Origin: Heterodontus francisci | Lineage: Eukaryota | NCBI RefSeq assembly: GCF_036365525.1 | Contig: NC_090389.1 | Span: forward strand, 35,338,973 to 35,402,972 | DNA: 64,000 bases | Direction of reading: 5' to 3' | Shown here: positions 880-60,845 of the stretch, one piece after another | Numbering within the stretch: the stretch's first letter is position 1 | Layout: each line of letters opens with the position of its first letter | Notes under the pieces: generated by a model | Seen by the model: the letters and a program-made list of their open reading frames with translations, nothing else | What the model was told of the DNA's origin: nothing | Databases searched by the model: none | Made by a program: the position numbers and the translations under genes

Positions 880-980
880 CTGTTTCTCTCTCCGCAGACG
901 CTGCCAGACCTGCTGAGTATTTTCAGCACTTTCTGTTTTTATTTCAGATTTCTGGCATCTGCAGTATTTTGCTTTTATTT
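880..980 (+). repeat. Penelope-like element 3' tail fragment (no ribozyme core)
   Basis: Closely matches 12583-12680, the tail of the Penelope terminal repeat (ctctccacagatgctgccagacctgctgagtatttccagcac...gcagtattttgctttta). Confidence 0.85.
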
Positions 981-1409
981 AAGTTAAACACAAATGCTTT
1001 CTTCGTAGCTAAGCATCACCATTTTACTTCAGATTACCTGTGAGTAACATGACTGGAGATTAGCACCGAATTCAAAATAAACTTTTAAATATAAGAATAT
1101 GTACAAATTACTTAGATTCCAAAAACTCCAAAATCTCTTTGGAAGAACAGTATGGAAATAATCCAAGAGTTTCAGATGAAAATCTTTACATTCTGTTAAA
1201 TGAAAGTTTCCTCTTTGTTAGGGTCAGGCAGTGGCAAGGATACCATGGACAGTGAGTTCATCCAGTCTGATCCCAATTCCTAGAGATGCATTTCACCTCC
1301 ATAAGCCAGATACTAATTTGTCATGGAGGTTGTGAATGAATAGTCTGGTTTATCCACAGACAGTTGCCAGGGAGAGAGATTAGTATTTCCAGCACTTTAT
1401 GTTTTTATT

Positions 1410-2615
1410 TTTCTTGCCCTGTCTACAACTCCCCTTCCTCTCCAAAATCCTTGAATGTGTTGTCTTTCCCAGAACTCCATGCTTGAATCCCTCCAATCAG
1501 GTTTACTCCCCTGCTACAATACCAAAACAGCTCTTTTCAAAGTTATCACATGTACACTGACGACACACCACCGTCTCTCCCCACTACTCCACTGTTGCTA
1601 AATTATCAGAGTGTTTAACATCCAGTATTGGATTTGTAGAAAGTGGGAAGAACGAAGCCATTATCTTTGGTGCCCACTACGAACTCTGCTCCCTCGCTAC
1701 CAACTTCATCTCTCTCCCTGGCAACTGTCTGTAGATAAACCAGACTATTCGCAACCTCCATGTCAAATTTGACCTTGAAGTGAGCTTCTGACCCTGTAGC
1801 CGTGCCTTCACTAAGACTGTAACATCACCCAACTCCGCCTCACCTCAGCTCAACTGCTAAAATCCTCATCCATGCCTTCGTTACTTACAGACTTGACTAC
1901 TGGAATGCACTCCTGGCTGGCCTCCCATTCTACCCTTGAGCTCCTCCATAACTCTGCTGCCCATGTGTTTATTCGCACCAAGTCCCGTTCATCCATCATA
2001 ATAAAAGCAAAATACTGCGGATGCTGGAAATCTGAAATGAAAGGGTCACTGACCTGAAGAAGGGTCACTGACCTGAAATGTTAACTCTGCTTCTCTCTCC
2101 ACAGATGCTGCCAGACCTGCTGAGTATTTCCAGCATTTCTTGTTTTCATCCCCTTCACCCATCACTTCTGTGCTTGCTGACCTACATTAGCTGCCAGTCA
2201 AGCAATGCCTCAATTTTAAAATTCTCACCCTTGTTTCCAAATGCCTCCATGGTCTCACTGCTCCTTGTCTCTGTAATCTTCTCCAGCCCCACAAACCTCT
2301 GAGATATTAGCACTAATCTAATTCTGACCTGTTGAGCATCTCCAATTTTAATTGCTCCATCATTGGTGATTGTGCCTTCAGCTGCCTCGGGCTTAAGCTC
2401 TGAAATTCCTTTCCTAAACCTCTCTGCTTCTCTATCTCAGTTTCCTCCTCTAAGATGCTCCTTAAAAACTGCTTCTTTGTTTGAGCTGTTGACCATCTGT
2501 CCAAACATCTCCTAATGTGGCTTGGTGTCATATTTTGCTTTATATAGGGCCTGTGAAGAGCCTTGGGATGTTTTATTATATTAAAGGCACTATATAATAC
2601 AAGTTGTTGTCGTTA
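1410..2615 (+). mobile_element. Old L2 LINE 3' fragment, interrupted at 1999-2148
   Basis: Decayed LIHAFVTYRLDY...LLAGLP RT C-terminal segment at about 1865-1930. L2-type tail gagccttgggatg...aaaggcactatataatacaagttgttgt at 2557-2610. Confidence 0.75.
1999..2148 (+). mobile_element. Short Penelope-derived insertion: inverted tail piece, duplicated hammerhead stem II, then tail
   Basis: Flanked by tcccgttcatccatca (1983-1998) and tccccttcacccatca (2149-2164), a 14/16 match. Core CTGAAGA-agggtcactgacct-GAAA-tgtt-aact at 2054-2086. Confidence 0.75.
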
Positions 2616-3458: not shown

Positions 3459-4448
3459 ACTTTTTACAATTTATATAAATGACTTAGATGAAGGGACCAA
3501 AGGTATGGTTGCTAAATTTGCTGATGACACAAAGATAGGTAGGAAAGTATGTTGTGAAGAGGACATAACGAGGCTACAAAGGGATATAGACAGGTTAAGT
3601 GAATGGGCAAAAACCTGGCAGATGGAGTATAATGTGGGAAAATGCGAAGTTGTCCATTTTGGCAGGAAGAATAATAAAGAAGCATATTATCTAAATGCTG
3701 AGAGATTGCGGAGCTCTGAGATATAGAGGGATCTGGGTGTCCGAGTGCATGCATCGCAAAATGTTAGTATGCAGGTACAGCACGTAATTGGGAAAGCTAA
3801 TAGAAAGTTATCGTTTATCGTGAAGGGAATTGAATACAAAAGTAGGGAGGTTATGTTGCAGCTATACAGGGCATTGGTGAGACCACATCTGAAGTACTGT
3901 GTACAGTACTGGTCTCCTTATTTAAGGAAAGATGTAAGTGCGTTGGAGGATGCACAGAGAAGGTTTATTAGACTATTACCTGGAATGGGCGGGCAGTCTT
4001 ACGAGGAAAGATTGGACAGGCTAGGCTTGTATCCGCTGGAATTTAGAAGAGTAAGAGGCGACTTGATTGAAACATATAAGATCCTGAGGGGTCTTGACAG
4101 GGCAATCCAGCTGTGGAAAGGCTGTTTTCCTTTGTGGGAGGATCTAGAACCAAGGGTCACTGTTTAAAAATAAAGGGTCACCCATTTAAGACAGAGATAA
4201 GGAGAAATTTTTTCTCTCAGAGGGTCGTGAGTCTTTGGAACTCTCTTCCTCAAAAGGCAGTGGAAGCAGAGTCTTTGAATATGATTAAGGCAGAGGTAGA
4301 TAGATTCTTGATAAGCAAGGGGGTGAAAGGTTATCTGCGATAGGTGGTAATGTGGAGAAATAAGTTCAGCCAGGAACTTACTGAATGGTGGAGCAGGCTC
4401 AAGTGGCCTACTTCTGCTCCTAATTTGCATGTTCGTATGTTCGTATGT
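3459..4448 (+). mobile_element. CR1 LINE, 5'-truncated, frameshifted RT C-terminus
   Basis: FTIYINDLDEG...KFADDTKIG, LYRALVRPHLKYCVQYWSP and FFSQRVVSLWNSLP motifs. Tail repeat gttcgtatgttcgtatgt. Confidence 0.95.
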
Positions 4449-4711
4449 AATGCCCTCCAATTCTGCGAATACAAATACAACTAAACCCAACACATAGAAT
4501 CACAGAATTGTTACAACACAGAAGGAGGTCATTTGGCCCTCTGTGTCCCTGCCAGCTCTCTGCAACATCAATTCAGCTGGTCCTACTCAAAGACTTGGGA
4601 TACATATGACCAAAGCCAGGCACTCAACTAGTCATGAAGAAAAGGCCACAAAGAAAATTGAAGTTGCACGCTGTGATGTTTATAATCAGCTAAATGGAAC
4701 AGAGAAAATTG

Positions 4712-5330
4712 GGAATGAATTTTAGCAGCCCTTTGGAGATGGACTGGGAGACAGGCGGGCTGGAAAATAGCGGGAGAAGGCATCGGGAGGGGAGCCCGCA
4801 TCTTCGTACCACCACGGCATATTAACAGTGACCGGAACCTTAGCGGCACAGCCACCCAACAGGTGGCCAATTGAGCTACCTAAGTAACGGCCACATCCCG
4901 CCCTGCTGATATTTTACCAGCATTGGGAGGGGCTGCTGCCGCCGAGTGGGGAGACTGCCAAGTAAACCCTGGCAACTTCCCAGTGAGTTCCCAGGTGGGG
5001 GTGGTGGTGGTGGTGGGGCCCTCCCCTGCTTAATGGCCACTCCATGGTCCATGGAGGGGGTCCCCTGATGGCAATGAATGCCCCCTGCTTGCAGGTAACC
5101 CATGGGCCCCCACCCCCAACCGTTAGGGCCTGCGTGCTGGCCCTTGCTCTTTAAAATGAACTTACCTTGTCTCAATAAGCACCTCAGCATGGAGGCTCCC
5201 TCTCCTTCATCATGCAGCCTCGACACCTCTGATGCTGACACTGCCAAGGCAGCCTCGCTGCCTGTGCAGGGTCGGCTCCTGCTTTTAATCCGAGTGGCAG
5301 GACTTCTTCGATGATGATAAAATTCCACCC
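4712..5330. mobile_element. GC-rich PIF/Harbinger-type MITE
   Basis: Imperfect TIRs ggaatgaatttta / taaaattccaccc with a 3-bp TSD ttg/ttg. No coding capacity. Confidence 0.65.
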
Positions 5331-5642
5331 TTGGTGTAGTTGAAAGAAAGAAAGGTGGTTATTTTCAAAACTCATGACGTTCCAGCTCACGTCTGCCTGA
5401 GAAAACTTAACATAGGTCAAAATACATAATAGCCCCTAAAATTAAAATCTAAATGATAGAACATAGAACATAGAACATTACAGCGCAGTACAGGCCCTTC
5501 AGCCCTCGATGTTGCGCCGACCTGTGAAACCATCTGACCTACACTATTCCATTTTCATCCATATGTCTATCCAATGACCACTTAAATGCCCTTAAAGTTG
5601 GCGAGTCTACTACTGTTGCAGGCAGGGCGTTCCACGCCCCTA

Positions 5643-8234
5643 CTACTCTGTCCTATATCTATCACCCCTCAACTTAAAGCTATGTCCCCTCGTGTTTGCC
5701 ATCACCATCCGAGGAAAAAGGCTCTCACTATCCACCCTGTCCAACCCTCTGATTATCTTATATGTCTCTATTAAGTCACCTCTTCTCCTCCTTCTCTCCA
5801 ACGAAAACAACCTCAAGTCCCTCAGCCTTTCCTGGTAAGACCTTCCCTCCATACCAGGCAACATCCTAGTAAATCTCCTCTGCACCTTTTCCAAAGCTTC
5901 CACATCCTTCCTATAATGCGGTGACCAGAACTGCACGCAAAACTCCAGGTGCGGCCGCACCAGAGTTCTGTACAGCTGCAGCATGACCTCGTGGCTCCTA
6001 AACTCGATCCCCCTACTAATAAAAGCTAACACACCATATGCCTTCTTAACAGCTCTATTAACCTGGGTGGCAACTTTCAGGGATTTATGTACCTGGTCAC
6101 CAAGATCTCTCTGCTCATCTACACTACCAAGAATCTTCTCATTAGCCCAGTATTCTGCAATCCTGTTACTCCTTCCGAAGTGAATCACCTCACACTTTTC
6201 CGCATTAAACTCCATTTGCCATCTCTCAGCCCAGCTCTGCAGCCTATCTATGTCCCTCTGTAACCTACAACATCCTTCGGCACTATCCACAACTCCACCG
6301 ACCTTCGTGTCATCCGCAAATTTACTAACCCACCCTTCTACACCCTCATCCAGGTCATTTATAAAAATGACAAACAGCAGTGGCCCCAAAACAGATCCTT
6401 GCGGTACACCACTAGAAACTATACTCCAGGATGAACATTTACCATCAACCACCACCCTCTGTCTTCTTTCAGCTAGCCAATTTCTGATCCAAAGCACTAA
6501 TTCACCTTCAATCCCATACTTCCGTATTTTCTGCAATAGCCTACCGTGGGGAACTTTATCAAACGCCTTACTGAAATCCATATACACCACATCCACGGCT
6601 TTACCCTCATCCACCTGTTTGGTCACCTTGTCAAAAAACTCAATAAGGTTTGTGAGGCACGACCTACCCTTCACAAAACCGTGCTGACTATCTCTAAGGA
6701 ACTTATTCTTTTCAAGATGATTATAAATCCTATCTCTTATAACCTTTTCCAACATTTTACCCACAACCGAAGTAAGGCTCACAGGTCTATAATTACCAGG
6801 GCTGTCTCTACTCCCCTTCTTGAACAAGGGGACAACATTTGCTATCCTCCAGTCTTCCGGCACTATTCCTGTCGACAATGACGACATAAAAATCAAGGAC
6901 AAAGGCTCTGCAATTTCCTCCCTGGCTTCCCAGAGCATCCTAGGATAAATCCCATCTGGCCCAGGGAACTTATCTATTTTCACACTTTCCAAAATTGCTA
7001 ACACCTCCTCCTTGTGAACCTCAATCCCATCTAGCCTAGTAGTCTGGATCTCAGTATTCTCCTCGACAACATTTTCTTTCTCCACTGTAAATACTGACGA
7101 AAAATATTCATTTAACACTTCCCCTATCTCCTCTGATTCCACACACAACTTCCCACTACTATCCTTGATTGGCCCTAACCTATCTCTAGTCATTCTTTTA
7201 TTCCTGATATACCTATAGAAAGCCTTAGGGTTTTCTTTGATCCTATCCGCCAATGACTTCTCGTGTCCTCTCCTTGCTCTTCTTATCTCTCCTTTTAGAT
7301 CCTTCCTGGCTAGCTTGTAACTCTCAAGCGCCCTAACTGAGCCTTCACGTCTCATCCTAACATAAGCCTTCTTCTTCCTCTTGACAAGCTCTTCAACTTC
7401 TTTAGTAAACCACGGCTCCCTCGCTCGACAACTTCCTCCCTGCCTGACAGGTACATACTTATCAAGGACACGCAGTAGCTGCTCCTTGAATAAGCTCCAC
7501 ATTTCGATTGTGCCCATCCCCTGCAGTTTCCTTCCCCATCCTACGCATCCTAAATCTTGCCTAATCGCATCATAATTTCCTTTCCCCCAGCTATAATTCT
7601 TGCCCTGCTGTATATGCCTGTCCCTGCCCATCGCTAAGGTAAACCTAACCGAATTGTGATCAGTATCACCAAAGTGCTCACCAACTTCTAAATCTAACAC
7701 CTGGCCGGGTTCATTACCCAGTACCAAATCCAATGTGGCATCGCCCCTGGTTGGCCTGTCTACATACTGTGTCAGAAAACCCTCCTGCACACACTGGACA
7801 AAAACAGACCCATCTAAAGTACTCGAACTATAGTATTTCCAGTCAATATTTGGAAAGTTAAAGTCCCCCATAACCACTACCCTGTTACTCTCACTCCTGT
7901 CAAGAATCATCTTTGCTATCCTTTCCTCTACGTCTCTGGAACTATTTGGAGGTCTATAGAAAACTCCCAACAGGGTGACCTCTCCTCTCCTGTTTCTAAC
8001 CTCGGCCCAGACTACCTTAGTAGACGAGTCCTCAAACTTCCTTTCTGCCGCTGTAATACTTTCCTTGATTAACAATGCCACCCCCCCCCCTCTTTTACCC
8101 TCTTCTCTGTTTTTAGTGAAACATCTAAATCCCGGAACCCGCAACATCCATTCCTGTCCCTGCTCTACCCATGTCTCTGAAATGGCCACAACATCGAGAT
8201 CCCAGGTACCAACCCATGCTGCAAGCTCACCCAC
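5643..8234 (-). CDS. CR1 ORF2 protein: APE endonuclease + reverse transcriptase (C-terminus shortened by a small deletion)
   Basis: 863-aa open frame with VAISETW, VMGDFN, LDLVL, GDTDH (APE) and YRPVSLTS, YMDFSKAFDKV, GVPQGSVLGP, FADD (RT). The frame stays open upstream to about 8310 (GLKCVYFNARS), so the listed GTG start is not necessarily the real one. Confidence 0.93.
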   Translation of the reverse strand: MGELAAWVGTWDLDVVAISETWVEQGQEWMLRVPGFRCFTKNREEGKRGGGVALLIKESITAAERKFEDSSTKVVWAEVRNRRGEVTLLGVFYRPPNSSRDVEERIAKMILDRSESNRVVVMGDFNFPNIDWKYYSSSTLDGSVFVQCVQEGFLTQYVDRPTRGDATLDLVLGNEPGQVLDLEVGEHFGDTDHNSVRFTLAMGRDRHIQQGKNYSWGKGNYDAIRQDLGCVGWGRKLQGMGTIEMWSLFKEQLLRVLDKYVPVRQGGSCRAREPWFTKEVEELVKRKKKAYVRMRREGSVRALESYKLARKDLKGEIRRARRGHEKSLADRIKENPKAFYRYIRNKRMTRDRLGPIKDSSGKLCVESEEIGEVLNEYFSSVFTVEKENVVEENTEIQTTRLDGIEVHKEEVLAILESVKIDKFPGPDGIYPRMLWEAREEIAEPLSLIFMSSLSTGIVPEDWRIANVVPLFKKGSRDSPGNYRPVSLTSVVGKMLEKVIRDRIYNHLEKNKFLRDSQHGFVKGRSCLTNLIEFFDKVTKQVDEGKAVDVVYMDFSKAFDKVPHGRLLQKIRKYGIEGELVLWIRNWLAERRQRVVVDGKCSSWSIVSSGVPQGSVLGPLLFVIFINDLDEGVEGWVSKFADDTKVGGVVDSAEGCCRLQRDIDRLQSWAERWQMEFNAEKCEVIHFGRSNRIAEYWANEKILGSVDEQRDLGDQVHKSLKVATQVNRAVKKAYGVLAFISRGIEFRSHEVMLQLYRTLVRPHLEFCVQFWSPHYRKDVEALEKVQRRFTRMLPGMEGRSYQERLRDLRLFSLERRRRRGDLIETYKIIRGLDRVDSESLFPRMVMANTRGHSFKLRGDRYRTE

Positions 8235-8415
8235 CTTATTCCGGATGCTCCTGGCATTGAAGTAGACACATTTTAAACCAAGCTCTTGCTTGCCACTGCC
8301 CTCGTGTCCTTATAACCTTATCCCTGACCTCACTACTCTCAACATCCTGCACACTGGAACTACAATTTAGGTTCCCATCCCCCTGCTGAATTAGTTTAAA
8401 CCCCCCTGAAGAGCA

Positions 8416-9172
8416 CTAGCAAATCTCCCCCCCCAGGATATTGGTACCCCTCTGGTTCAGGTGAAGACCATCCTGTTTGTAGAGGTCCCACCTACCCCAG
8501 AAAGAGCCCCAATTATCCAGGAAACCAAAACCCTCCCTCCGACACCATCCCTGCAGCCACGTGTTCAACTCCTCTCTCTCCCTATTCCTCACTTCGCTAG
8601 CACGTGGCACGGGCAACAACCCAGAGATAACAACTCTGTTTGTTCTCGCTCTAAGCTTCCACCCTAGCTCCCTGAATTTCTGCCTTAAATCCCCATCTCT
8701 CTTCCTACCTATGTCGTTGGTGCCTATGTGTACCACGACTTGGGGCTGCTCCCCCTCCCCCTTGAGGATGCCAAAAACACGATCCGAGACATCACGTACC
8801 CTGGCACCTGGGAGGCAACACACCAACCGTGAGTCTCTCTCGTTCCCACAAAACCTCCTATCTGTTCCCATAACTATGGAGTCCCCAATGACTAATGCTC
8901 TGCTCCTCTTACCCCTTCCCTTCTGAGCAACAGGGACAGACTCTGCGCCAGAGACTTGTATCCCATTGCCTACCCCTGGTAAGTCGTCTCCCCCAACAGT
9001 ATCCAAAACGGTATACCTGTTGTTGAGGGAAACGGCCACAGGGGATCCCTGCACTGCCTTCTGGTTCCCTCTCCTTCCCCTGACGGTAACCCATCTACCT
9101 TCTTCTTTTACCTGAGGTTTGACTGCCTCCCGATAACTCCTCTCAATAATCCCCTCCGCCTCCCGAATGATG
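8416..9172 (-). pseudogene. CR1 ORF1 C-terminal SGNH esterase-like domain (5'-truncated, frameshift in a G-run near its end)
   Basis: VIGDSIV, CLPGARV, VHIGTND and DGLHLN blocks typical of SGNH hydrolases in CR1 ORF1. Confidence 0.88.
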
Positions 9173-9408
9173 ATCAAGAAATGTTTTGTTCTGGTCTGGT
9201 ACAAAGTGGAAATGTAGTTAGCCATGGTGCAAACTGCTACACCTACGGGAAAAATATGTGAAAAGATCCATTGATACTCCAAGCCAAATTGTCAGGATGT
9301 TAGTACCAATATATTTGAATTTAGTTCAATTCAATATTTAATAATTTTGGAACACAAAGTGCTGGAAATACTCAGCAGGTCTGGCAGCATCTGTGGAGAG
9401 AGAAGCAA

Positions 9409-9445
9409 AGTTAACGTTTCAGGAGCGTGACCTTTCATCAGAACT
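9409..9445 (-). ncRNA. Minimal type I hammerhead ribozyme motif (stem II weakened)
   Basis: Minus strand reads AGTT-CTGATGA-A-aggtcacgctcct-GAAA-CGTT-AACT. The core is intact and stem II is reduced to agg/cct. Confidence 0.7.
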
Positions 9446-9706
9446 GGCAAAGGTTAGAAAAGAATGAGGTTTAAAGCAAGTGAAGGGGAGCTGGGTGGGG
9501 GAGAAAACAAAGGGAAAGGTGTTTGATAGGGCAGGAGAGATTAAATAGCAAAGCTCTCCTGGGAAAAAGGCAAAGCGTGTGCTAATGCTTGTGGTGAAAG
9601 ACAATGCATTAGTCCAGAGAGACTGTTAATAGCAGAATAATGAGCAGCTCTGACTACATGAAAAGCAGGCACATGGTTAAAAAATTAAATATTAAAAAGA
9701 GGCCAG

Positions 9707-12200
9707 TCATGCTCTGAAGTTATTGAACTCAATGTTCAGTCTGCAAGGCTGTAGAGTGCCTAATTGAAAGATCAGGTGCTGCTCCTCGAGCTTGCGTTGA
9801 TGTTCACTGGAACACTGGAGCAGGCCAAAGACAGAAATGTTGGCATGACAGCAGTGGGGAGTGCTGAAATGGCAAGCAACCGGAAGCTCAGGGTCATGCT
9901 TTTGGACTGAGCGGAGGAGGTGTTCAACAAAGCGGCCACCCAATCTGCATTTGGTCTCCCCAATGTAGAGGAGACCACATTGTAAGCAGTAAATACAGTA
10001 TACTAAATCGAAAGAAGTACAAGTAAATCGGTGCTTCATCTGAAAGGAGTGTTTGGGGCCTTGGATAGTGAAGAGAGAGGAGGTACTAGGGCAGGTATTA
10101 CACCTCCTGCGATTGCATGGGAAGGTGCCTTGGGAAGGGGACAAGGTGTCGGGGGTAATGGAGGAGTGGACCAGAGTGTCACTGAGGGAACGATTCCTTC
10201 AGAATGCTGACAGGGGAGGGCAAGGGAAGATGCGTTTGGTGGTGGCATCACGCTCTAAGAGGCGGAAATGGCAGAGGATGATCCTCTGAATGTGGAGGCT
10301 GGTGGGGTGGAAAGTGAGGACAAGAGGAACCCTGTCGCGGTTCTGGGAGGGAGGGGAAGGCGTGAGGGCAGAAGTGCAGGAAATGGGCCGTGTCAACCAC
10401 AGTGAGCGGGAATCCTCTGTTGAGGAAAAAGAAAGACATATCAGAGGCGCTGTTGTGGAAGGTTGCATCATCAGAGCAGATGCGTCAGAGACGGAGAAAC
10501 TGGGAGAATGGAATGGAGTCCTTACAGGAGGCGGGGTGTGAGGAAGTGTATTCGAGATGGCTGTGGAGTCGGTGGGCTTATAATGAATATTAGTGGACAG
10601 CCTATCCCGAGAGATGGAGACAGGGAAGTCGAGGAACAGAAGGGAAGGGTGGTGTCTGAGATAGACCATGTAAAGATGAGAGAAGGGTGGAAATTGGAAG
10701 CAAAGTTGATAACGTTTTCCAGTTGGGGGCGGGAGCAGGAAACGGCACCGATACAGTCATCAATGTACCTGAAAAAGAGTTGGGGGAGGGGGCCTGAATA
10801 GGACTGGAACAAGGAATGTTTGACATATCCCACAAAAAGACAGGCATAACCAGGACCCATGCACGTACCCATAGCAACACCTTTTACTTGAAGGAAGTGA
10901 GTGGAGTTGAAGGAGAAGTTGTTCAATGTGAGAACAAGTTCAGCCAGGCGGAAGAGGGTGGTGGTGGATAGGGACTGGTTGGGCCTCTGTTCAAGGAAGA
11001 AGCGGAGTGCCCTCAAACCACCCTGGTGGGGGATGGAAGTGTAGAGAGATTGGACGTCCATAATGAAGAGGAGGCAGTTAGGGCCAGGAAACCGGAAATT
11101 GTCAAAATGACGTAGGGCTTCAGAAGAGTCATGGATGTAGGTGGAAAGAGACTGGACCAGCGGAGAAAAGATAGAGTCAAGATAGGAAGAAATAAGTTCA
11201 GTGGGGCAGGAGCAGGCTGACACAATGGGTCTGCCGGGACAGTCCTGTTTGTGGATTTTGGGGAGGAAGTAGAAGCGGGCTGTCCAGGGTTGTGGGACTA
11301 TGAGGTTGGAAGCTGTAGAGGGAAGATCTCCGGAGGACATGAGGTCAGTCATAGTCCTGTGGACAGTAGCCTGATGTTCGGTGATGGGGTCTTGGCCCGG
11401 GGGAGGTAGGAAGAAGTGTCTGAGAGTTGGCACTCAGCCTCTAAAGGTAGAGGTCGGTATGCCAGACAACAACAGCACCACCCTTGTCTGCAGGTTTGAT
11501 CACAATGTCGGGGTTAGACCTGAGAGAACGGTGTGCAGAAGGTCAGAAGGAGACAGGTTAGAGTGAGTGAGGGGAGCAGAGAAATTGAGAAGACCGATGT
11601 CTCACACCGACAGTTCTCAATAAAAAGATCAAGAGTGGGTAAGAGGCCAGTGGGAGGGCCCCAGGTGAAGGGAGAATGCTGGAGGTGGGTGAATGGGTCT
11701 GCTGGTCAGGGGGAGGACCTGGTCAAAGAAGTGATCACGAAGGCGATGGAAGAAGAGCTCAACGTCATGCCGAGCACGAAATTCATTCAGGTGGGGGTGT
11801 AAGGGGATAAAACTGCGTCCTTTGCTGAGTACAGATCGTTCAGCATCAGAGAGGGGAACGTCAGAGGATGTAGTGAATACACGGCAAGGGGTCAGATCAG
11901 AAGCAATGGGGTCAGAGGGAGGTGAAGGGGAAGAAGGATCTGGAGGGGCATTAGTCCCCATCAGCTGCTGGAGCTAGCGTTCCTTAACACCTGAAAGGAA
12001 GAAAAAAAGTTTTTTATTAATGCATTGGATAAGGATGAAATGAAACTGCAGAGCAGAACAGCTTTGAGATAGGATCAGGCGGTACTTCTGCAGCAAGAGG
12101 TCCAGTGTGTACATGTGACGGCGCATGGCACTGAGTGTGGATCTCAGGATGCGGCGAGAACAGCAGTCTGAGGAACGTTGTATTTCTTGGAGATACGCAT
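9707..12200 (-). pseudogene. Penelope RT + GIY-YIG endonuclease, frameshifted
   Basis: ARFYFLPKIHKQDCPGRPIVS, DVQSLYTSIP, QVKGVAMG and FFRYIDDCIG (RT). GTFPCNRRRCNTC and VYCIYCLQCGLLYIGETKCRLGGRFVEH (Cys-rich linker and GIY-YIG). Confidence 0.92.
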
Positions 12201-12545
12201 GCTCGAGGAGCAGCACCTGATCTTTCGATTAGGCACTCTGCAGCCTTGCAGACTGAACATTGAGTTCAATAACTTCAGAGCATGACTGGCCTTTTTTAAT
12301 ATTTAATTTTTTAACTATGTGCCTACTTTTCATGTAGTCAGAGCTGCTCATTATTCAGTTGTCAACAGTCTCTCTGGACTAATGCTTTGTCTTTCACCAC
12401 AAGCATTAGTATACTATTTGCCTTTGTCCAAGGACAGCTTTGTTATTTAATCGCCCTCTGCCCTATCAAACACCTTTCCCTTTGTTCTCTCCCCCACCCC
12501 CTCCCCTTCACTTGCTTTAAATCTAATTCTTTTCTAACCTTTGCC

Positions 12546-12582
12546 AGTTCTGATGAAAGGTCACAGACCTGAAACGTTAACT
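12546..12582 (+). ncRNA. Minimal type I hammerhead ribozyme motif
   Basis: AGTT (stem I) CTGATGA A AGGTC-aca-GACCT (stem II) GAAA CGTT AACT (stem I'). Stem III is the palindrome ACGT. Predicted cleavage is after GUU at 12578. Confidence 0.82.
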
Positions 12583-13259
12583 TTGCTTCTCTTTCCACAG
12601 ATGCTGCCTGACCTGCTGAGTATTTCCAGCACTTTTTGTTTTTGTTTCAGATTTCCAGCATCTGCAGTATTTTGCTTTTATTTAATAATTTTGGACTTTT
12701 TTCATTTGTCTCATAGATTAATGAATGTCAGGAGTTCAAATGTGTTTGCCCTTTCAAGAAATAGTTTGCTAGATATTGTATGCCAGATGAAATTGTTGCA
12801 CATAATGGACCCAACCTGAAAAATTTGGAATTCAAAAATCTTTGCTGAGCCCATGGTTGAAAGAATATGGCCACAATATAATGAGAAAGCTGAGAAAGTT
12901 ATTTGAATTGAAAAAGCGCTGTTGACAAAAGCAAAAGGTCAAAATGTATATCTCATGCTTCTTACTTATCCTTCCATCCCTGGGGTGACGGAGTGTCACC
13001 CGCACAGTTGTTGATGAGCTGCAGGGCGAAAACAGCACTTCCCAGCCCAGAATGAGAGCTCAAATAAAAAATTATCAAAGGAGTTTTACAAAATCTTATG
13101 TTCAACAAAAGTAAGAAAAAGATATACTTTGGCCAGTGATCTCATCCTGTAAAGCTGCAACCAAGATGCAGTGAGGATCTATGAACAGGATAAACGGAGA
13201 GCAGCAGTTGTTCAGCAAAAGATTAATGAGCTGAGATCAAGGCCCCAATGATAAATTGT

Positions 13260-20496: not shown

Positions 20497-21270
20497 ATGG
20501 GCATTGTCCACTCTGGAGGCAGCTTCTCTCGTGAGGAAGAGAATGCCACAAGGAGGGACAGGAGGACAAGTGACCAGGGAAATCAGCAACCTGCTGGCCA
20601 ACTGCAGCCTGGTAATGGGGGAGGGGAAGGAGGTCACAGAGTGCGCCAGGAGCAAACATCTGTGAGGAGATAGGTCTACCCAGTAGGCAGGGTCTGCCGC
20701 CCACGGTTGAGCTTTCTGCAGATGTCCGAGCTCCAGTGCCATCGAAGACTGTGCCTGTCCTGAAAGACTGTCACATCTCTGTGTGAGATGCTGGCACCGG
20801 AGGTCATATCCAACTGTGTGGGTGGCCATTCAATGCCGGTTGCACTAAAAGTCACAGCCACTCTGAACCTCTATGCATCAGGCTCATTCCAGGCTTCCAC
20901 AGGAGACATGTGCGGAATCTCACAGTCATCAGTGCAACACTACATTAAGGTGGTAACTGATGCCATATTCAGGCGTGCCAACCAGTTCACCAAGTTCCAG
21001 ACAGACTCCACCAGTCAGGCCGAGAAAGCCAGAGGCTTCAGTGCCATCACTGAGTTTCCCATGGTCCAAGGTGTGATTTAATGTACACATGTGGCCATTA
21101 GAGCACCTGCAGGTCTGACAGGGGCCTTCATAATGAAAGGGGGTATCACTCAATAAATGTGCAACCTGTCTGTGACCACTGTAAGGGTATATTACAGGTG
21201 TGTGTTCATTATCCTGGAAGTAGTCACGACGCATTCATTCTGCAGAACTCCCAGGTGCCAGCACTATTCA
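20497..21270 (+). pseudogene. Harbinger DDE transposase, N-terminal half
   Basis: VALKVTATLNLYASGSFQ..GDMCGISQSSV, FPMVQGVI*CTHVAI (first catalytic Asp replaced by a stop) and [11 protein letters not shown]. Confidence 0.9.
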
Positions 21271-22255
21271 ACCAGGCCAGTGCTGAGCCCCAGGCTGATG
21301 ATGAACCTCTGAGAACATCCATTTGGCAGGAGATGCTACAGGTGCAGCGTGAGGTGTGTGGAGATCTGGCGGAGTTACCAGAGACCCTGTGTGCTCTGGT
21401 TCAGACTATGGAGGTTTCCATCCAGACCATGAGTTCCGCACAGTCCCTGTCATCTGTGCAACTGGCTTCCTCCATTGACAGACTGGAGGGCCCGATACTG
21501 CAGGCCCTCCAGAACCTCACAGAGACAATGAGCTCTATGGAGCAGTGCCTCAGTGAGTTGTCAACGAGGCTACTGCAACATCCAACAGCTGCTCATCCCT
21601 CTGAGGTCAGCAGGGAGGCCCAATTGAGCCTCATGAGGGCACAGGAGCAACAGCAGCATGCATGAGGGGGCTCCTCTCAGGCCACTCCTGCTGCATACAG
21701 GTGCTCCTTGTCCCCTCAGCCAGTGACATTAGCACCTCAAAATCCAGGATGACAGAGGGTGGTCCTGAGACTGCTCAGGGTCACCTCAACATACCTGGGC
21801 CCTCACGGCCTCAGGCAGTCAGAGGACGCCCACCAAGGTCATCCCAAGCCATGGGGCATCCTGAACAGCCACCTGCCTCTGCCGTGGCTGGCAGCGAGGT
21901 GTCATCTACATGCGCAAGCAGTCGCAAATGTTTTAAGAATTCACATTAACTACACTTAGGGTCACTGGTGCGATTTTGAATTATTTATTTGTTGTTCGAC
22001 TGCACATAAAACTTATTAAATTTCTCACTTGGCTTTTTCATCTGTCTCAAGTCAATGATGATGTATTAGATGATCTTTTTCTTCTGCATGAGATGGAGAC
22101 TTGGGGGAGGTGCCACATTGGACCATGTTGTGTTTGAGGGAAAGGTGGACCGTTGCAGCTGAGATTAACACCTGCAGGTGGGTGTTTTTGCGCTTCTAGC
22201 TGATGTGAATGCCTGAATTCAGAATGACATATCAGTCATTGGCATACTGCATGGG

Positions 22256-42984: not shown

Positions 42985-43915
42985 ATTTCTTTTATTCCTT
43001 CATGAGATCGGGTGTCACTGGCTATGCCAGCATTTATTTCCCATCCCTAATTGCCCTTGAGAAGGTGGTGGTAAGCTGCCTTCTTGAACTGTTGCAGTCG
43101 TCGGGGTGTAGGTACACTAACAGTGCTGTTAGGAAGGGAGTACCAGGAATTTGACCCAGCGACAGTGAAGAAACAGTGATATAGTTCCAAGTCAGGATGG
43201 TGTGTGGCTTGGAGAGGAACTTGCAGGTGGTGGTGTTCCCATGCATCTGCTGCCCTTGGCCTTCTAGGTGGTAGAGGTCACAGGTTTGGAAGGTGCTATC
43301 GAAGGAGGCTTGGTGAGTTGCTGCAGTACATCTTGTAGATGTGACACATTGCTGCCACTGTGCGTCAGTGTGGAGACAGTGAAGTTGAAGGTGGTGGATG
43401 GGGTGCCTATCAAGTGGGCTGCTTTGTACTGGATCGTGTCGAGCTTCTTGAGTGTTGTTGGAGCTGCACCCATCCAGGAGAGTATTCCATCACACATTCA
43501 TCAGTTCTGATGAAAGGTCACTGACCTGAAACATTAACACTGCTTCTCTCTCCACAGATGCTGCCAGACCTGCTGAGTATTTCCAGCACTTTCTGTTTTC
43601 ATTCCATCACACCCCTGACTTGTGCCTTGTAGTTGGTGGACAGGCTTTGGGAAACAGGAGGTCAGTTACTCGCCGCAGAATTCCCAGCCTCTGATCTGCC
43701 CTTGTAGCCACAGCACTATGTGGATGTTCCAGTTCAGTTTCTGGTCAATAATGACCCCAGGATGTTGATAGTGGGGGATTTAGCGATGGTAATGCCATTG
43801 AACATTAAGAAGATGGTTAGCTTCTGTCTTGTTGGAGATGGTCATTGCCTAGCACTTGTGTGGCGCAAATGTTACTTGGCACTGATCAGCCCAAGCCTGG
43901 ATGTTGTCCAGGTAT
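42985..43915 (-). mobile_element. Second-family LINE 3' fragment
   Basis: WMGAAPTTLKKLDTIQYKAAHLIG and the same tail as at 23681. Confidence 0.88.
43496..43600 (+). mobile_element. 105-bp hammerhead-containing Penelope-derived mini-insertion
   Basis: Perfect 12-bp TSD attccatcacac (43484-43495 and 43601-43612). Contains AGTT-CTGATGA-A-AGGTC-act-GACCT-GAAA-catt-aac followed by the tail. Confidence 0.85.
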
Positions 43916-44439: not shown

Positions 44440-47400
44440 ATTAGAACTGATAAGATTGAAAGGGTCATGGATATCACCGAGTGGCTACAGAGCATTCTGG
44501 AGGGCAAGGGCAAACAGCCAAAGGTCGTGGTCCATATTGGTATCAACAATATAGGAAGAAAGAGGGATGAGGTCCTGCAGGCTGTTTAGGGAGTTAGGAA
44601 TGAGATTAGCAAGCAGGACCTCAAAGGGAGTAATCTCCGGATTACTCCCAAGGCCATGTGCTAGTGAGCATAGAAATAGGAAAATACACCACATGAATGC
44701 GTGGCTGGAGAGGTGGTGCAGGGGGGAGGCTTCAGATTTCTGGGGCATTGGGACTGGTTCTGGGGAAGGTGGGACCTGTACAAGCCAGACGGTCTACACC
44801 TGAATAGGACAGGGACAAATATCCTTGCAGGAAGCTTTGCGAGTGCGGTTGGGGATGGTTTAAACGATTTTGGCAGGGAGATGGGAACCTAAGCGCAGTC
44901 TTAGAAAGGACATTTTCAGGGAAGGAAACAGGAGGCAGAAAATTAGCGAGTGACTCTGAAAGACAGAAGAAGCAAAGGTTAAAAAGTGTGCAGCACAAGA
45001 ATTTGGCAGTGTTAAAGAGTATTGAGTTAAATGCAAGGAGTATAGTAAATAAAGCCGATGAGCTGAGGTTACAGATAGACACATGGCAACATGATATCAT
45101 TGCTATAACGGAAACTTGGCTTACAAGAATGGCAGCTCAGCTTCCTGAATGTAGAGTTTACAGGCGGGATAGAGAGGGAGATAAAAAAGGAGGGGGTGTA
45201 GCATTATTAGTTAAGGAATCAATAACAGCTTTGAGGAGGGGCGATATGCTAAATCAATCATCAAACGAGGCCATATGGGTGGAGCGCAGAAATAAAAAAG
45301 ATGCAGCCACACTACTAGGAGTGTACTATCAATCCCCAAATAGTGAGAGGGAGGTAGAAGAACCATCATGTAGGCAAATTTCTGATTGCAAAAATTATAG
45401 GGCAATAATAGTTGGGGATTTCAACTACCCCAATATCAACTGGGATACAAACAGTATGAAGGGCACAGAGGGGACAAAATTCTTGAGCTGCATTCAAGAG
45501 AACTTTTTTAGCCAGCACGTAACAAGCCCAACGAGAGGGGGGCGCAATTCCAGATTTAGTCTTCGGTAATTAGATTAGATTAGAGATACAGCACTGAAAC
45601 AGGCCCTTCGGCCCACCGAGTCTGTGCCGACCATCAACCACCCATTTATACTAATCCTACACTAATCCCATATTCCTACCAAACATCCCCACCTGTTCCT
45701 ATATTTCCCTACCACCTGCCTATACTAGTGACAATTTATAATGGCCAATTTACCTATCAACCTGCAAGTCTTTTGGCTTGTGGGAGGAAACCGGAGCACC
45801 CGGAGAAAACCCACACAGACACAGGGAGAACTTGCAAACTCCACACAGGCAGTACCCGGAATCGAACCCGGGTCCCTGGAGCTGTGAGGCTGCAGTGCTA
45901 ACCACTGCGCCACTGTGCCGCCCAGTGCAGCTGGGTAAGTGGATGAAGTAACTGTGTGTGATCATTTTGGAGATAGTGACCATAATACAGTTAGTCTTGG
46001 CATAATTATGGAAATGGACAAAGATAAAACAGGAGTAAAGTTCTAAATTGGGGGAAGGCAAATTTTACGAAACTGAGAGAGTAGACTGGATACAGCTACT
46101 TGAAGGAAAATCAGTGGCAAGCCAGTGGGAGGCATTCAAAAGCAAGATACTACAGTCACAGTGTAGGCATTTCCTTACAAAGATATTGCAGTGGTACTGC
46201 CAAATCTAGAGCCCCCTGGTTATCGACAAGCTTACAGAGTAAGTTAAAACAGAAAAAGAAAGCTTATAACGATCACAAAATTCTTAATTATTTAGAAAGT
46301 GCAGGGGTGAAGGAAAAAAGGAAATTAGAAAGGCAAAGAGAGGGCATGAAAAATTATTGGCAGATAAAATCAAGGAAAACCCAAGATGTTTTATCAGTAC
46401 ATTAAGAGAAAGAGGATAACTAAGGAAAGGGTAGGGCCTATCAGAGATATACAGGGGAACTTATGCGTGGATGCAGAAAATATGGGCAGGGTTCTTAATG
46501 TGTTTTTTGTTTCTGTCTTCACAAAGGACAGGGTTGATGCAGACATTGTAGTTAAAGAGGAGTGTGAAATGTTAGATATGATAAGCATAATGAGAGAGGA
46601 AGTACTAGAGGGTCTGACATCCTTGAAAGTGGATAAATCGCCAGGGCCGGATGGATTGCATCCCAGGTTGTTAAAGGAAGCCAGGGAGGAAATAGTGGAT
46701 GCGCTGAGGATCATCTTCAAATCCTCACTGGATATGGGCGAGGTGCCAGAGGATTGGAGGTCTGCGAACGTTGTACCATTGTTTAGAAAGGGTGCGAGGG
46801 ATAGGCCAAATAATTATAGGCTGGTCAGTCTGACCTTGGTGATGGGTAAGTTATTAGAATCAATTCTGAGGGACAGGATAAACTTAGAAAGGCATGGATT
46901 AATCAGGGATCGTCAGCATGGATTTATTAGGGGATGGTCATGACTTACTAACATAATTGAGTTTATTGAAGAAGTAACAAGGAGGATTAATGAGGGTAGT
47001 GCAGCGGATGTGGTCTGCACGGATTTTAGTAAAGCATTTGACAAGGTCCTGCATGGCAGATGGGTCAGAAAAATGAAAGCCCATGGGAGACGGGAATGTG
47101 GCAGGTTGGTTCCAAAATTGTCTCAGTGACAGGAAACAAAGGGTAGAAGTCGACAGATGTTTTTGCGAATGGAAAGCAGTTTCCAGTGGTGTTCCACAGG
47201 GCTAAGTGCTGGGTCCCTTGCTGTTTGTGGTATATATTAATGATTTGGACATAGTTGCTCTGGAGAGAGTAAAGAGGATATTTACACAAATGTTATCAGG
47301 GCTTGAAAGTTGCAGCTATGAGGAAAGATTGGATAGGCTCGGGTTGTTTTCCCTAGAACAGAGGAGGCTGAGGGATGACTTTATTAAGATGTGCAACATT

Positions 47401-48423: not shown

Positions 48424-49816
48424 TGTTACGACCAGGTGAGGAAGGGGTCTCAGGCCCCCCTTTCGCCCCTTCTCTGGTTTGACCGCAACAGGGTTTATGT
48501 TTTATAACACAGTGATTCAACTTTACCACCTCAGTCAGCACTTGCTCCTGTTATAGAGTCATAGAGAGATACAGCACTTAAACATGCCCTTTGGCCCACC
48601 GAGTCTGTGCTGACCAACAACCACCCATTTATACTAATCCTACATTAATCCCATATTCCCTACCACATCCCCACCATTCTCCTACCACTTACCTACACTA
48701 GGGACAATTTACAATGGCCAATTTACCTACCAACCTGCAAGTTTTTGGCTGTGGGAGGAAACTGGAGCACCTGGCGGAAACCCACACGGTCACAGGAAGA
48801 ACTTGAAAGCTCCACACAGGCGGTACCCAGAACTGAACCTGGGTTGTTGGAGCTGTGAGACTGCGGTGCTAACCACTGCACCACTGTGCCCAATATAATG
48901 TTATATAATGTTCCTGTAATGTAATTGCTAATAAACCAATCAGACAGGTTTTCTTGAGTTTAAACAAGAAAGTTGTAAGTGTATTAACCTTATCACTCTA
49001 AACCAGTTAAAAATACTAAAATACACGATGCATCCACGTTCACATTCACACGAGAAGCACACACACACAGACAAATAGATTACAGAGGGAAAAAACACAG
49101 AGTTGGGAGGTTGGAGTAGAGTCCTTAATAAAAATGGAATTTAAATACGAAGTTTAGTTCCAGAGTTCTTAGTTGAAGTTGTAGTCCTGAAGTCCTCGCA
49201 TGGTCACTTGTATAATTCGAGTTTGCTTCCCAGGTTCTGGAAGGCAGAAGAAGGGCTTTATCCATGTCCCCTGGTTGCTGACTGTAATTTATCTTCCACT
49301 AGCTGCAGCTTGAGGCTTCTCAGGATCTCTACTGGAGACAGAGAGAGAGAGGAAGGATGTTCCCTGGGTGAATCTCAGTTACTGTGTGACTTCTGAGTCA
49401 CCACTCACAAATCTCCAGAGTGGCCCAAGCAGTCACGTGATGTGATCACCTCTTTGTGTTTGAATCAGAAGCTGCCAGAAAGGTCTTTGAAATTCAAGCT
49501 GTTCAAACATACGTGGTAGGGGGGGTTTGGCTCTTTCAAAGTCAATGGGTGTTGATGGTTTTCGATGACCCCCATTGATAAGGCTATCCCAGATAAGTGA
49601 ATCAGAAAGCACCCCATTGTTCTGGCTAGGCTGGGTAATCATGTCTGTCTCCAGCTTAATCCTTTGGTTTATCAAATGCAAATTGTGCGTGGCCATCTTG
49701 GCTACTGGTTGCTCTGTTTTTAAAAGTTATTTGTAATAATGTCCAGTAAAAGGCTCAGGAAAAGTTCCACATTATGCAATTAATATCTCAATTTGGTATG
49801 TGGGGTTTGCATCACA
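48424..49816 (-). mobile_element. Solo LTR with nested SINE
   Basis: TGTTAC...ATCACA termini and perfect 4-bp TSD cacc (48420-48423, 49817-49820). Related to 33305-34206. Confidence 0.85.
48553..48890 (-). mobile_element. HE1-like V-SINE
   Basis: Homologous to 45570-45922. Confidence 0.9.
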
Positions 49817-57471: not shown

Positions 57472-59198
57472 CAGTGGTTGGCAATGTGTCCGTACACGCT
57501 GTCTGTAGTAAAAATGTTGAGGTCCGTGGTAATTTTAAATGGCTTGTTCCAAGCCTTTAAACTTCTGTTTTAAAACACAGGTTTAAAGGCTTAGAGCAAG
57601 ACATTTATCATTATCAGGAACAAAGGTAATTACAAAGGATCAGGCGAGTTCCTACAGCCCGCCAAAGTTTTGTATCAGGCCCGCCAATCGAAAGCACGAA
57701 TGGTTTGCCTGCACACGGACCTCTGTCTAATTGGAGCACGGGGAGTCAGGAATCTCTGGGAAGAATGGAGCTGTCAATCAAGGGGCGCTGACCAATGGGA
57801 GCAGGCAGGGGCAGTGCTGGTGGAGTGCAGGAGAGGCGGGACTCACTGGGAAGATTGGTGCCATCAATCAAGTGCTCCCTGCCTGTGTCTCAGCTGCAGA
57901 ACCAGATCTTGAGAGTGTTGGTGAGTAGAACAGATTGGATAGTGCACAGGAAGGCAATGATAGAACTGGAAAGGCTTGACTTTTTTGAGCCAGAGCAAGC
58001 TGTTTTTTTATAGGCAAAGAGTCCACTTTCTCAGCTCTCCAAACACCCTGGTTTCTCTCAGAGTGCAAGCCCGGTGCTGAGCGGAAATGTGTTTCCGCTC
58101 TTGGTGCATGGGGGAAGGGGTGGGACAGGAGAGAGTGGCGGGGGAGGAGCGAGACAAATTGACGGAAGGGGGGGGTGGAGAGGGAGAGAGTGGTGGGGTG
58201 AAGAGGGAGAGAGTGGCGGTGTGAAGAGGGAGAGAGTAGTGGGGTAAAGAGGGAGAGAGTAGTGGGGTGAAGAGGGGAGAGTGGCGGGGGAGAGGGAGTG
58301 AGTGGCGAGAGAGGGAGTGAGTGGGGGGAGGAGGAGGGGGGAGAGGGGGGATGGGGAGGGGGCAGAGTGGAAGGGGAGGGGGGAGAGTGGAAGGGGAGGG
58401 GGGAGAGTGGAGGGGAGGGGGGAGAGGCTGGTGAGAAGGGGGACAGGAGAGATGGGATAGAAAGGGGCAGGGAGGTATGGGATAGAGAGGGGGTGGGAGA
58501 GATGGGATAGAGAGTGGGAGAGAGAGATGAGAGAGGGAGCTGTGAGAGGGAGGGGTGCAGGGAGTAGAGGGAGTGGGCAGGGGAAGAGAGAGGGCTCGAG
58601 GAGGAAGAGGGTGGTAGGAGGAGAGGGGACAAGGAGGGGGAGAGGGGGGAGGGTCACGGGGGAGAGGGGAGAGGGACACGAGGGGAGAGGGACACGGGGG
58701 GAGAGGGGGGAGAGACATGGGGGGAGAGAGGGGAGGGATATGGGGACTGAGAGAGGGAGACAGCGGAGAGGAGGGAGAGAGGGGAGGGATATGGGGACTG
58801 AGAGAGGGAGACAGCGGAGAGGAGGGAGAGTGGGGGGACATGGGGGGAGAGAGAGGGGGACACAGAGGGGAGAGGGATGGACACAGAGGGGAGTGGGATG
58901 GTCACAGAGAGGAGTGGGGGAGAGGGACAGAGACAGAAAGAGGGAGAGATCAAGATCACTCCTGACAGATGGACATCTATCCGAATTCTTTGCATTGTTC
59001 ATCAAGTGCGTGGGCAGACATTGACCACTTGTGCAAGCAAAAATAATGCCAGTTATCTCACTAAATAGGAAGCAATGTGATTTGAAACGGACTGTGTTTT
59101 GATGGCATTATGTTGGCAGATTAATTGCACCCATGTCCATGCCTGAGTCAATAATTTTGTCAAATGTCCGTGGTGCAACATGTTGGTTCCTATCCCTG
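57472..59198 (+). mobile_element. hAT (Charlie-like) non-autonomous element
   Basis: 8-bp TSD ggatagtg/ggacagtg, termini cagtggttggcaa...ttcctatccctg. The RSLLTDGHLS remnant of the hAT C-terminal dimerisation region is at about 58950-59066. Confidence 0.82.
58110..58950 (+). repeat. About 840-bp G/A-rich polypurine low-complexity tract
   Basis: Mostly G and A on +. Includes a roughly 51-bp tandem duplication (about 58725-58830). Confidence 0.95.
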
Positions 59199-59819: not shown

Positions 59820-60845
59820 AGACAAAGGCAAAACACTGCGAATGCTGGAAATCTGAAATAAAAGCAGAAAATGCCGGAAATACTCAGCAGGCGCAGTGGT
59901 TAGCACCGCAGCCTCACAGCTCCAGCGACCCGGGTTCAATTCTGGGGATTGCCTGTGTGGAGTTTGCAAGTTCTCCCTGTGTCTGCGTGGGTTTCCTCCG
60001 GGTGCTCCGGTTTCCTCCCACATGCCAAAGACTTGCTGGTTGATAGGTTAATTGGCCTTTATAAATTGCCCCTAGTATAGGTAGGTGGTAGGGAAATGTA
60101 GAGACAGGTGGGGATGTGGTAGTAATGTGGAATTAGTGTAGGATTAGTATAAAATGGGTGGTTGACGGTCGGCACAGACTCGGTGGGCCGAAGGGCCTGT
60201 TTCAGTGCTGTATCTCTAAACTAAACTAAAGTTCTGACTGTGTCTGTGGAGAGTTAACATTTCAGGTCTGTGACCTTTCATTGGAACTGGGAAAAGTTAG
60301 AAATGAAACAAGTTTTGAGCATGTGAAAGAGACATGAGTGGGTAAAAGAGCAAAAGGGAAGGATTATGATAGGGTGGAGGGCAGGAGAGATCAAATGACA
60401 AAAGGGTACATGGTGCAAGGCCAAAGGGAGTGGTAATAGGACAAGTAAATAAACCAACATGTGTCTTGAGGAAGTGTAAATGGGAGGATGTGTCTAGCTA
60501 CCATCCGAAAGCAAAAATAAAAGAGAAGCAAGACAGTAAAAAATCAAACCAGCAAAGAAAATGGAAACAAAATGGGGGCAGAGATGACAATTTATAATTG
60601 TTGAATTCAGTGTTGAGTTCAGAAGCCTGTTAAGTGACCTGTGAAAAGATGAGGGGATGTCTCTCGAACTTGCATTGAGCTTCATTGAAACATTGAAGAA
60701 GGCCGAGGACAGAGAGGTCAGTGTAGGAGCAAGGTGGAGAATTAAAATGACAGGTGATTAGAAGCTTGGGGGTCACACTTGAGGACCATATGGAGATGTT
60801 CCACAAAATCATCATCTAGTCTATGTCTCCCCAAAGTAGAGGGGC
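59820..60845 (-). mobile_element. Older Penelope 3' fragment with degenerate hammerhead (60252-60288), interrupted by a SINE
   Basis: GIY-YIG tail (CHFNSPPCSYTDLSVLGLLQC). Minus strand reads agtt-ccaatga-a-aggtcacagacct-gaaa-tgtt-aact. Confidence 0.82.
59890..60230 (+). mobile_element. HE1-like V-SINE
   Basis: Homologous to 45570-45922. Tail gggccgaagggcctgt...(ctaaa)n. Confidence 0.9.

Follow-up and report, generated by a model that had tools for sequence, protein, structure and literature searches.

The 37 nucleotides at positions 12546-12582 (+) of the window, by which is meant the whole stretch of 64,000 nucleotides of Heterodontus francisci DNA analysed here, are a minimal type I hammerhead ribozyme motif of a known class, located in the pseudo-LTR of a Penelope-like element (PLE). 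Our preferred reading, which we consider rather likely, is that the motif belongs to a Neptune-type PLE, present here as a broken copy, that in the active element it forms the first 37 nt of the RNA, and that its cleavage is weak or dependent on protein. The first part of this reading is supported by the pile-up of genomic copy starts at the first base of the motif (+1) and of copy ends near +100 and +136, and the second by the GUU triplet in 73 of 75 scored copies (nine were skipped because of indels) together with the core change U4C in 41/50 copies of the youngest group. The motif as such is not new to biology, and the role of hammerheads in PLEs is still debated (PMC8557442); here the family is very large, and its copy ends should record both the RNA start and the site where copying begins.

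The hammerhead motif

With 12546 numbered as +1, a 4-bp stem I joins AGTT (12546-49) to AACT (12579-82), the core consists of CTGATGA (12550-56) and GAAA (12571-74), and a 5-bp stem II joins AGGTC (12558-62) to GACCT (12566-70) around the loop ACA. An extra unpaired A (12557) follows A9, between positions 9 and 10.1, and stem III is represented by the palindrome ACGT (15.2-16.2; 12574-77), which begins with the last A of the core and is followed by U17 of the GUU triplet (12578). The preliminary description had given these same features, from the 4-bp stem I and full core to the extra A, 5-bp stem II, ACGT and GUU, and all of them were verified. The consensus CUGANGA...GAAA..UH is thus present with U as H17, and in 14 hand-picked copies 95% of cells in the 4-bp and 5-bp helices are paired. 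PLEs are already reported to carry minimal hammerheads in which a base is added after A9 and stem III is a palindrome (PMC4209133), and the earlier assignment to the Penelope-type minimal type I hammerheads agrees with the class as it is described there, including its location in the pseudo-LTR. Published work covers the dimer idea as well as the class, the palindrome and the additional A. Every defining feature is found in the shark motif except the G10.1-C11.1 pair, highly conserved in the class though not obligatory, which is replaced by A-U; its cleavage is putative.

That the motif is a chance match seems next to impossible, although some results taken by themselves would allow it: the bare core pattern is not significantly enriched in the window (11 matches against 6.4 expected, with 8/100 shuffles as high) and no Rfam hammerhead model matched the window up to E 10. 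The predicted fold of a 51-nt monomer is likewise ordinary (z -0.5). Against chance stand the presence of all published features of minimal hammerheads at the position expected in a PLE, and a search of the 6.0 Gb genome in which a 34-nt family pattern gave 52,260 exact matches while its reversed control gave none. Because the motif sits in a Penelope end repeat and belongs to this genome-wide family, with 1,668 exact occurrences of the 37-mer itself, element context and family data together refute the chance reading.

The Penelope-like element carrying the motif

The element spans 9352-12678 and is broken. A 17-bp target-site duplication lies at both sides (9335..9351, AT-rich, and 12679..12695), and since it encloses the whole unit, a single insertion is indicated. 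The pseudo-LTR with the motif (12195..12678, +) is an inverted, 5'-truncated copy of the element's 3' end, the sense version of which lies at 9352..9797 (-) and lacks the outer tail; 12195-12678 and 9351-9797 are 92.6% identical across 448 columns. The PLE open reading frame (9707..12190, -) is interrupted by stops and frameshifts, and encodes an N-terminal domain, a DKG motif, a reverse transcriptase, a CX5CXXC linker and a GIY-YIG endonuclease, with RVT_1 and GIY-YIG matches that both fall below the Pfam curated cut-off in this decayed copy. The order of reverse transcriptase and GIY-YIG, the DKG motif and a linker of the form CX2-5CXXC are those of endonuclease-bearing (EN+) PLEs, and so is the partial tandem or inverted repeat structure with a tail; an inverted-repeat layout with the tail at one end has been described for PLEs (PMC8557442). 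The linker, on which the assignment is based, points to Neptune or Nematis. Upstream of the motif, the hexamer TTTAAA (12516..12521, -30..-25) matches the consensus of a TATA-like element and is a putative promoter component, and downstream lies the tail region (12583..12678). The copy at 12546-12582 is itself a leftover under neutral decay.

Five hammerhead copies had been reported in the window, and all were found at their positions with the palindromes ascribed to them; the loss of the palindrome in three of them was borne out, while further damage to the four copies other than 12546-12582 had been overlooked, so that one of the five is intact. The sense copy of the same element (9409..9445, -) keeps ACGT and has lost two of the five pairs of stem II. 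A short stub at 43501..43599 (+), running from about -2 to +97 and flanked by a 12-bp duplication (43484 and 43601), holds a hammerhead from 43503 with a stem I of just 3 bp and the palindrome ACAT. At 2000..2146 (+) a fold-back stub joins an inverted tail (2000-2037) to a copy that starts at the core (2054), lacks the 5' strand of stem I and has ATGT. An older copy of about 75% identity (60252..60402, -; hammerhead 60252-60288) also has ATGT, and its core G5 has changed to A. Two more pieces, at 881-982 (+) and 59824-59891 (-), consist of tail only.

Other repeats occur in the same window. A LINE at 5643-9291 (-) is the immediate downstream neighbour of the sense pseudo-LTR and has an 888-aa endonuclease-reverse transcriptase frame preceded by a GDSL/SGNH esterase frame; the promoter predicted in that pseudo-LTR, with its start near 9445, would be directed into the LINE. 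A tRNA-like repeat, probably a SINE, is present in three copies (45771-45919, 48742-48890 and 59890-60029), a DDE_Tnp_4 (Harbinger-like) transposase fragment lies at 21102-21665 (+), and a long imperfect hairpin at 57525-57619 gives weak matches to microRNA models, far below cut-offs.

Genomic family and conservation

A 26-nt tail anchor has 103,404 exact matches in the genome and none for its reversed control. When 112 of 171 sampled copies were clustered, three main subfamilies emerged, and three further clusters proved to be fold-back junctions. The youngest subfamily, 3.6% from its consensus, has the core CCGAAGA (U4C) and a G10.1-C11.1 pair (46/50 copies); the second has CUGAAGA with G-U at 10.1-11.1; and that of 12546-12582, about 5.5% from consensus, has CUGAUGA with A-U. 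All carry a TATA-like hexamer at -30, which is TTATAA or TTAAAA in the other subfamilies. GUU is fixed family-wide and is no peculiarity of 12546-12582. A GUC pattern gave 838 genome matches and its control 141; the matches are for the most part isolated point variants of the same family, and searches for other hammerhead families returned almost solely variants of this one PLE family. A separate observation concerns seven near-identical units near the start of contig C1 (L161-L167, 72,821-184,264), spaced about 18-19 kb apart, each with a different core-plus-stem II motif that ends in GUC, lacks an adjacent stem I and precedes a stretch resembling, by eye, another PLE-type coding region.

Between subfamily consensuses identity is 67-90% in the upstream 100 nt, 86-100% in the motif and 92-98% in the tail, so conservation of the motif exceeds that of the upstream UTR and does not exceed that of the tail. 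Special conservation of core and stems, a condition set in the preliminary description, was not borne out: among 37 long copies the core has diverged by 2.7% at non-CpG sites, stem I by 2.4% and stem II by 2.3%, compared with 2.7% and 5.1% for two tail segments and 6.9% upstream, the core thus diverging as fast as the adjacent tail. Covariation in the stems did not exceed that of shuffles (99/500), a single pair having changed on both sides. That pair, 10.1-11.1, varies as G-C, G-U and A-U across subfamilies, and the other differences, U4C apart, lie in N7 and loop II. The palindrome CpG is intact in 50/50 copies of the youngest group, compared with 41/50, 46/50 and 18/23 for three other CpGs, sites which may vary by sub-lineage rather than by decay. 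All subfamily consensuses retain the core (U4 apart), both stems and the CpG palindrome, a pattern that suggests continuing selection. The full motif with U4 is retained in just 7/67 sampled copies reaching +1, and for this reason is unlikely to matter for host RNAs.

Copy ends and the start of the RNA

The tail anchor alone was used to pick 100 copies within the first 6.5 Mb of contig C1. Their starts fall at -4..+5 relative to the motif's first base in 38 cases and at +30..+38, near the predicted cut, in two; another 40 copies continue upstream for over 45 nt, and the remaining 20 begin at other places. Fold-back arms account for 16 of the 38, and some of these are the two arms of one insertion and so not independent. 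A larger set of 260 copies, partly selected by the hammerhead, gave 93 starts at -4..+5 and five at +30..+38, with 3' ends at +93..+106 (99 copies) and +133..+138 (140 copies; these positions are as far as the reference extends). Target duplications of at least 9 bp flank 22/89 short non-inverted copies, compared with 2/112 long controls. The pile-up at +1 recurs in the subfamily of 12546-12582 (13/25, at loci picked by hammerhead patterns), where the bases upstream of +1 are GCC, which is not a cleavable triplet; a second cut site at a GUC just upstream of +1 was rejected as its cause, since this GCC subfamily has the same pile-up.

Genome-wide, a cut footprint was absent from the start patterns: that for +34 gave 398 matches and its +38 control 309, without an excess, and simple truncations made up 5/30 and 9/30 of them, respectively. 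Most of the +34 and +38 matches are deletions, or fold-back joins via an AACT match. As cut RNA might not be copied, the missing footprint is no proof of missing cleavage. In a number of fold-back insertions (L252, L255-258, L261, L275, L280; L284, L286, L288, L300, L301, L306) the inverted arm stops at about +1 and is fused to the forward arm, at +34 or +38, where the two share a short match to the stem I sequence, an arrangement that fits a cDNA ending at +1 and priming itself. In 9/30 body-matched loci the motif and tail precede the body by about 410 nt and share its orientation; the motif stands there at the head of a tandem copy, with the likely ATG about 160 nt further on. The leader of such loci (L135, L138-141, L143, L148, L156, L158) holds a 30-codon upstream open reading frame which begins in the tail, is in frame with the main one and ends before it, and also several pyrimidine tracts resembling splice acceptors.

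Two further counts have little bearing on the RNA start. The 37-mer extended by eight bases upstream has 615 genome matches and by eight downstream 639, without a difference; this says nothing on the start because both flanks vary between sub-lineages. The motif is covered by four contig sets, of which three are RNA by guess only; depth peaks at about +20..+128, and as this depth mirrors genomic copy number it is no evidence of expression.

These copy ends would be best explained if a promoter in the upstream pseudo-LTR, with its TATA-like hexamer at -30, started the RNA at about +1, and if the reverse transcriptase then began inside this RNA, at +100 or +136, and ran off the 5' end, leaving stubs of 100-136 bp with an uncut motif. 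The template would be uncut RNA, and long copies would arise by read-through of tandem elements. Reverse transcription of the anole PLE has two internal start sites, and its hammerhead cuts only with protein, uncut RNA being the main substrate (PMC11167929). Evidence against a motif that forms the first 37 nt comes from Penelope of D. virilis, in which a TATA-less promoter starts RNA well upstream of the hammerhead (PMC2377424, PMC4209133).

It is quite improbable that the pile-up at +1 reflects a polymerase stop or template switch at the folded motif, or splicing or other RNA processing, in place of initiation. The AG of stem I does resemble a 3' splice site, helix I marks the end of an intron in D. 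virilis (PMC4209133), and the fold-back junctions use short matches around +1; the count of extra G residues derived from a cap (7/18, p 0.24) is taken as undecided. Yet the short copies share no common upstream exon, no element-sense GT-AG joint occurs among the 15 contig joints listed of 23, and a polymerase halted by structure should stop where the stems have their 3' foot (+37 and +25) and not at +1. Returning to initiation at +1, we advance only tentatively, as somewhat doubtful, the stronger proposal that the hammerhead is a capped 5' end behind a TATA-type promoter and became near-inactive by drift (GUU fixed, U4C in the youngest subfamily) as the copies of the element rose beyond 100,000. 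If true, the fold would persist because it serves as a structural handle or as a decapping switch gated by protein and not as a routine processing nuclease, which would bear on what PLE hammerheads are for.

Cleavage capacity

The preliminary description had proposed that 12546-12582 could cleave itself as a dimer at the GUU triplet; this is doubtful, and we think it unlikely that the motif is an efficient dimeric ribozyme. In favour of such activity, the full core and palindrome are present, GUU is counted as a cleavable NUH site (PMC3138052), and published minimal hammerhead dimers do cleave, if slowly (PMC4209133); the changes at 10.1-11.1, the confinement of the rest, U4C excepted, to N7 and loop II, and the intact palindrome CpG of the youngest group point the same way. 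Against it, the usual G10.1-C11.1 is replaced by A-U, covariation is not above that of shuffles, and genomic copy ends bear no cut-site footprint. The window holds no intact same-strand partner, because the second hammerhead of this element lies on the opposite strand, with its stem II damaged. The monomer is predicted to misfold at -7.3 kcal/mol, pairing the core with the cut-site region, compared with -5.9 for stems I and II, and U17 extends the palindrome to AACGUU, which by prediction could tie up A14 and U17. Just 1/9 Xenopus dimers cleaved in vitro in the data drawn from bioRxiv 10.64898/2026.07.22.740005. A read-through RNA across both arms would fold into an extended duplex and hide the motif within it, and a transcript started at the copy's own promoter would depend on a second molecule in trans.

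Weak or protein-dependent cutting accords with what is reported for U4C, which lowers hammerhead activity in vitro; a viroid hammerhead with this change is less active and still infectious (PMC3088659), so weak cutting does not equal absent cutting. The natural variants at U4, 10.1-11.1 and H17, together with the recorded copy ends, provide an inexpensive way to ask if cleavage is of consequence to PLEs.

Comparison with known systems

The literature surveyed, at abstract level and outside subscription papers, Repbase and Dfam, held nothing on shark PLE hammerheads or on copies that start at the motif; Lunse et al. or the supplement of PMC4209133 may already contain shark, GUU or U4C variants. 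With the metazoan PLE hammerheads described in PMC4209133 the shark family shares the core, the 4-bp helix I, the unpaired base between 9 and 10.1, the palindrome at 15.2-16.2, the place in the pseudo-LTR, mostly solitary copies and opposite-strand pairs. It differs in the fixed GUU, the A10.1-U11.1 of the present subfamily in place of the usual G-C, U4C in the youngest subfamily and a stem II of 5 bp. Its copy number is at least 52,260, compared with about 4,000-9,000 in coelacanth and Xenopus (PMC4209133), counts obtained by differing search methods.

PAc, a Poseidon element of Anolis, resembles the shark family in having two 3' ends about 35 nt apart (in the tail), an AT-rich target and no ends at the cut site, with uncut RNA as the template, as we propose for the shark (PMC11167929). 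In contrast, the linker is Neptune-type in the shark, where hammerhead activity is putative, and the main open reading frame probably starts about 160 nt after the motif, behind the short upstream one, while that of PAc starts inside stem II (PMC11167929). Neptune and Nematis EN+ PLEs share with the shark element the reverse transcriptase, the Zn-finger-like linker, the C-terminal GIY-YIG, partial tandems, the inverted 5'-truncated copy and the tail at a single end (PMC8557442).

In the window and among the sampled short copies no head-to-tail hammerhead tandems were found: the window copies are single or inverted, and the sampled short copies are singles or fold-backs. Non-LTR retrozymes, as presented in bioRxiv 10.64898/2026.07.22.740005, are also short non-coding hammerhead units derived from pseudo-LTRs, but they form head-to-tail arrays cut at the scissile bond, whereas the stubs of the shark family are dispersed singles or fold-backs that start at +1.
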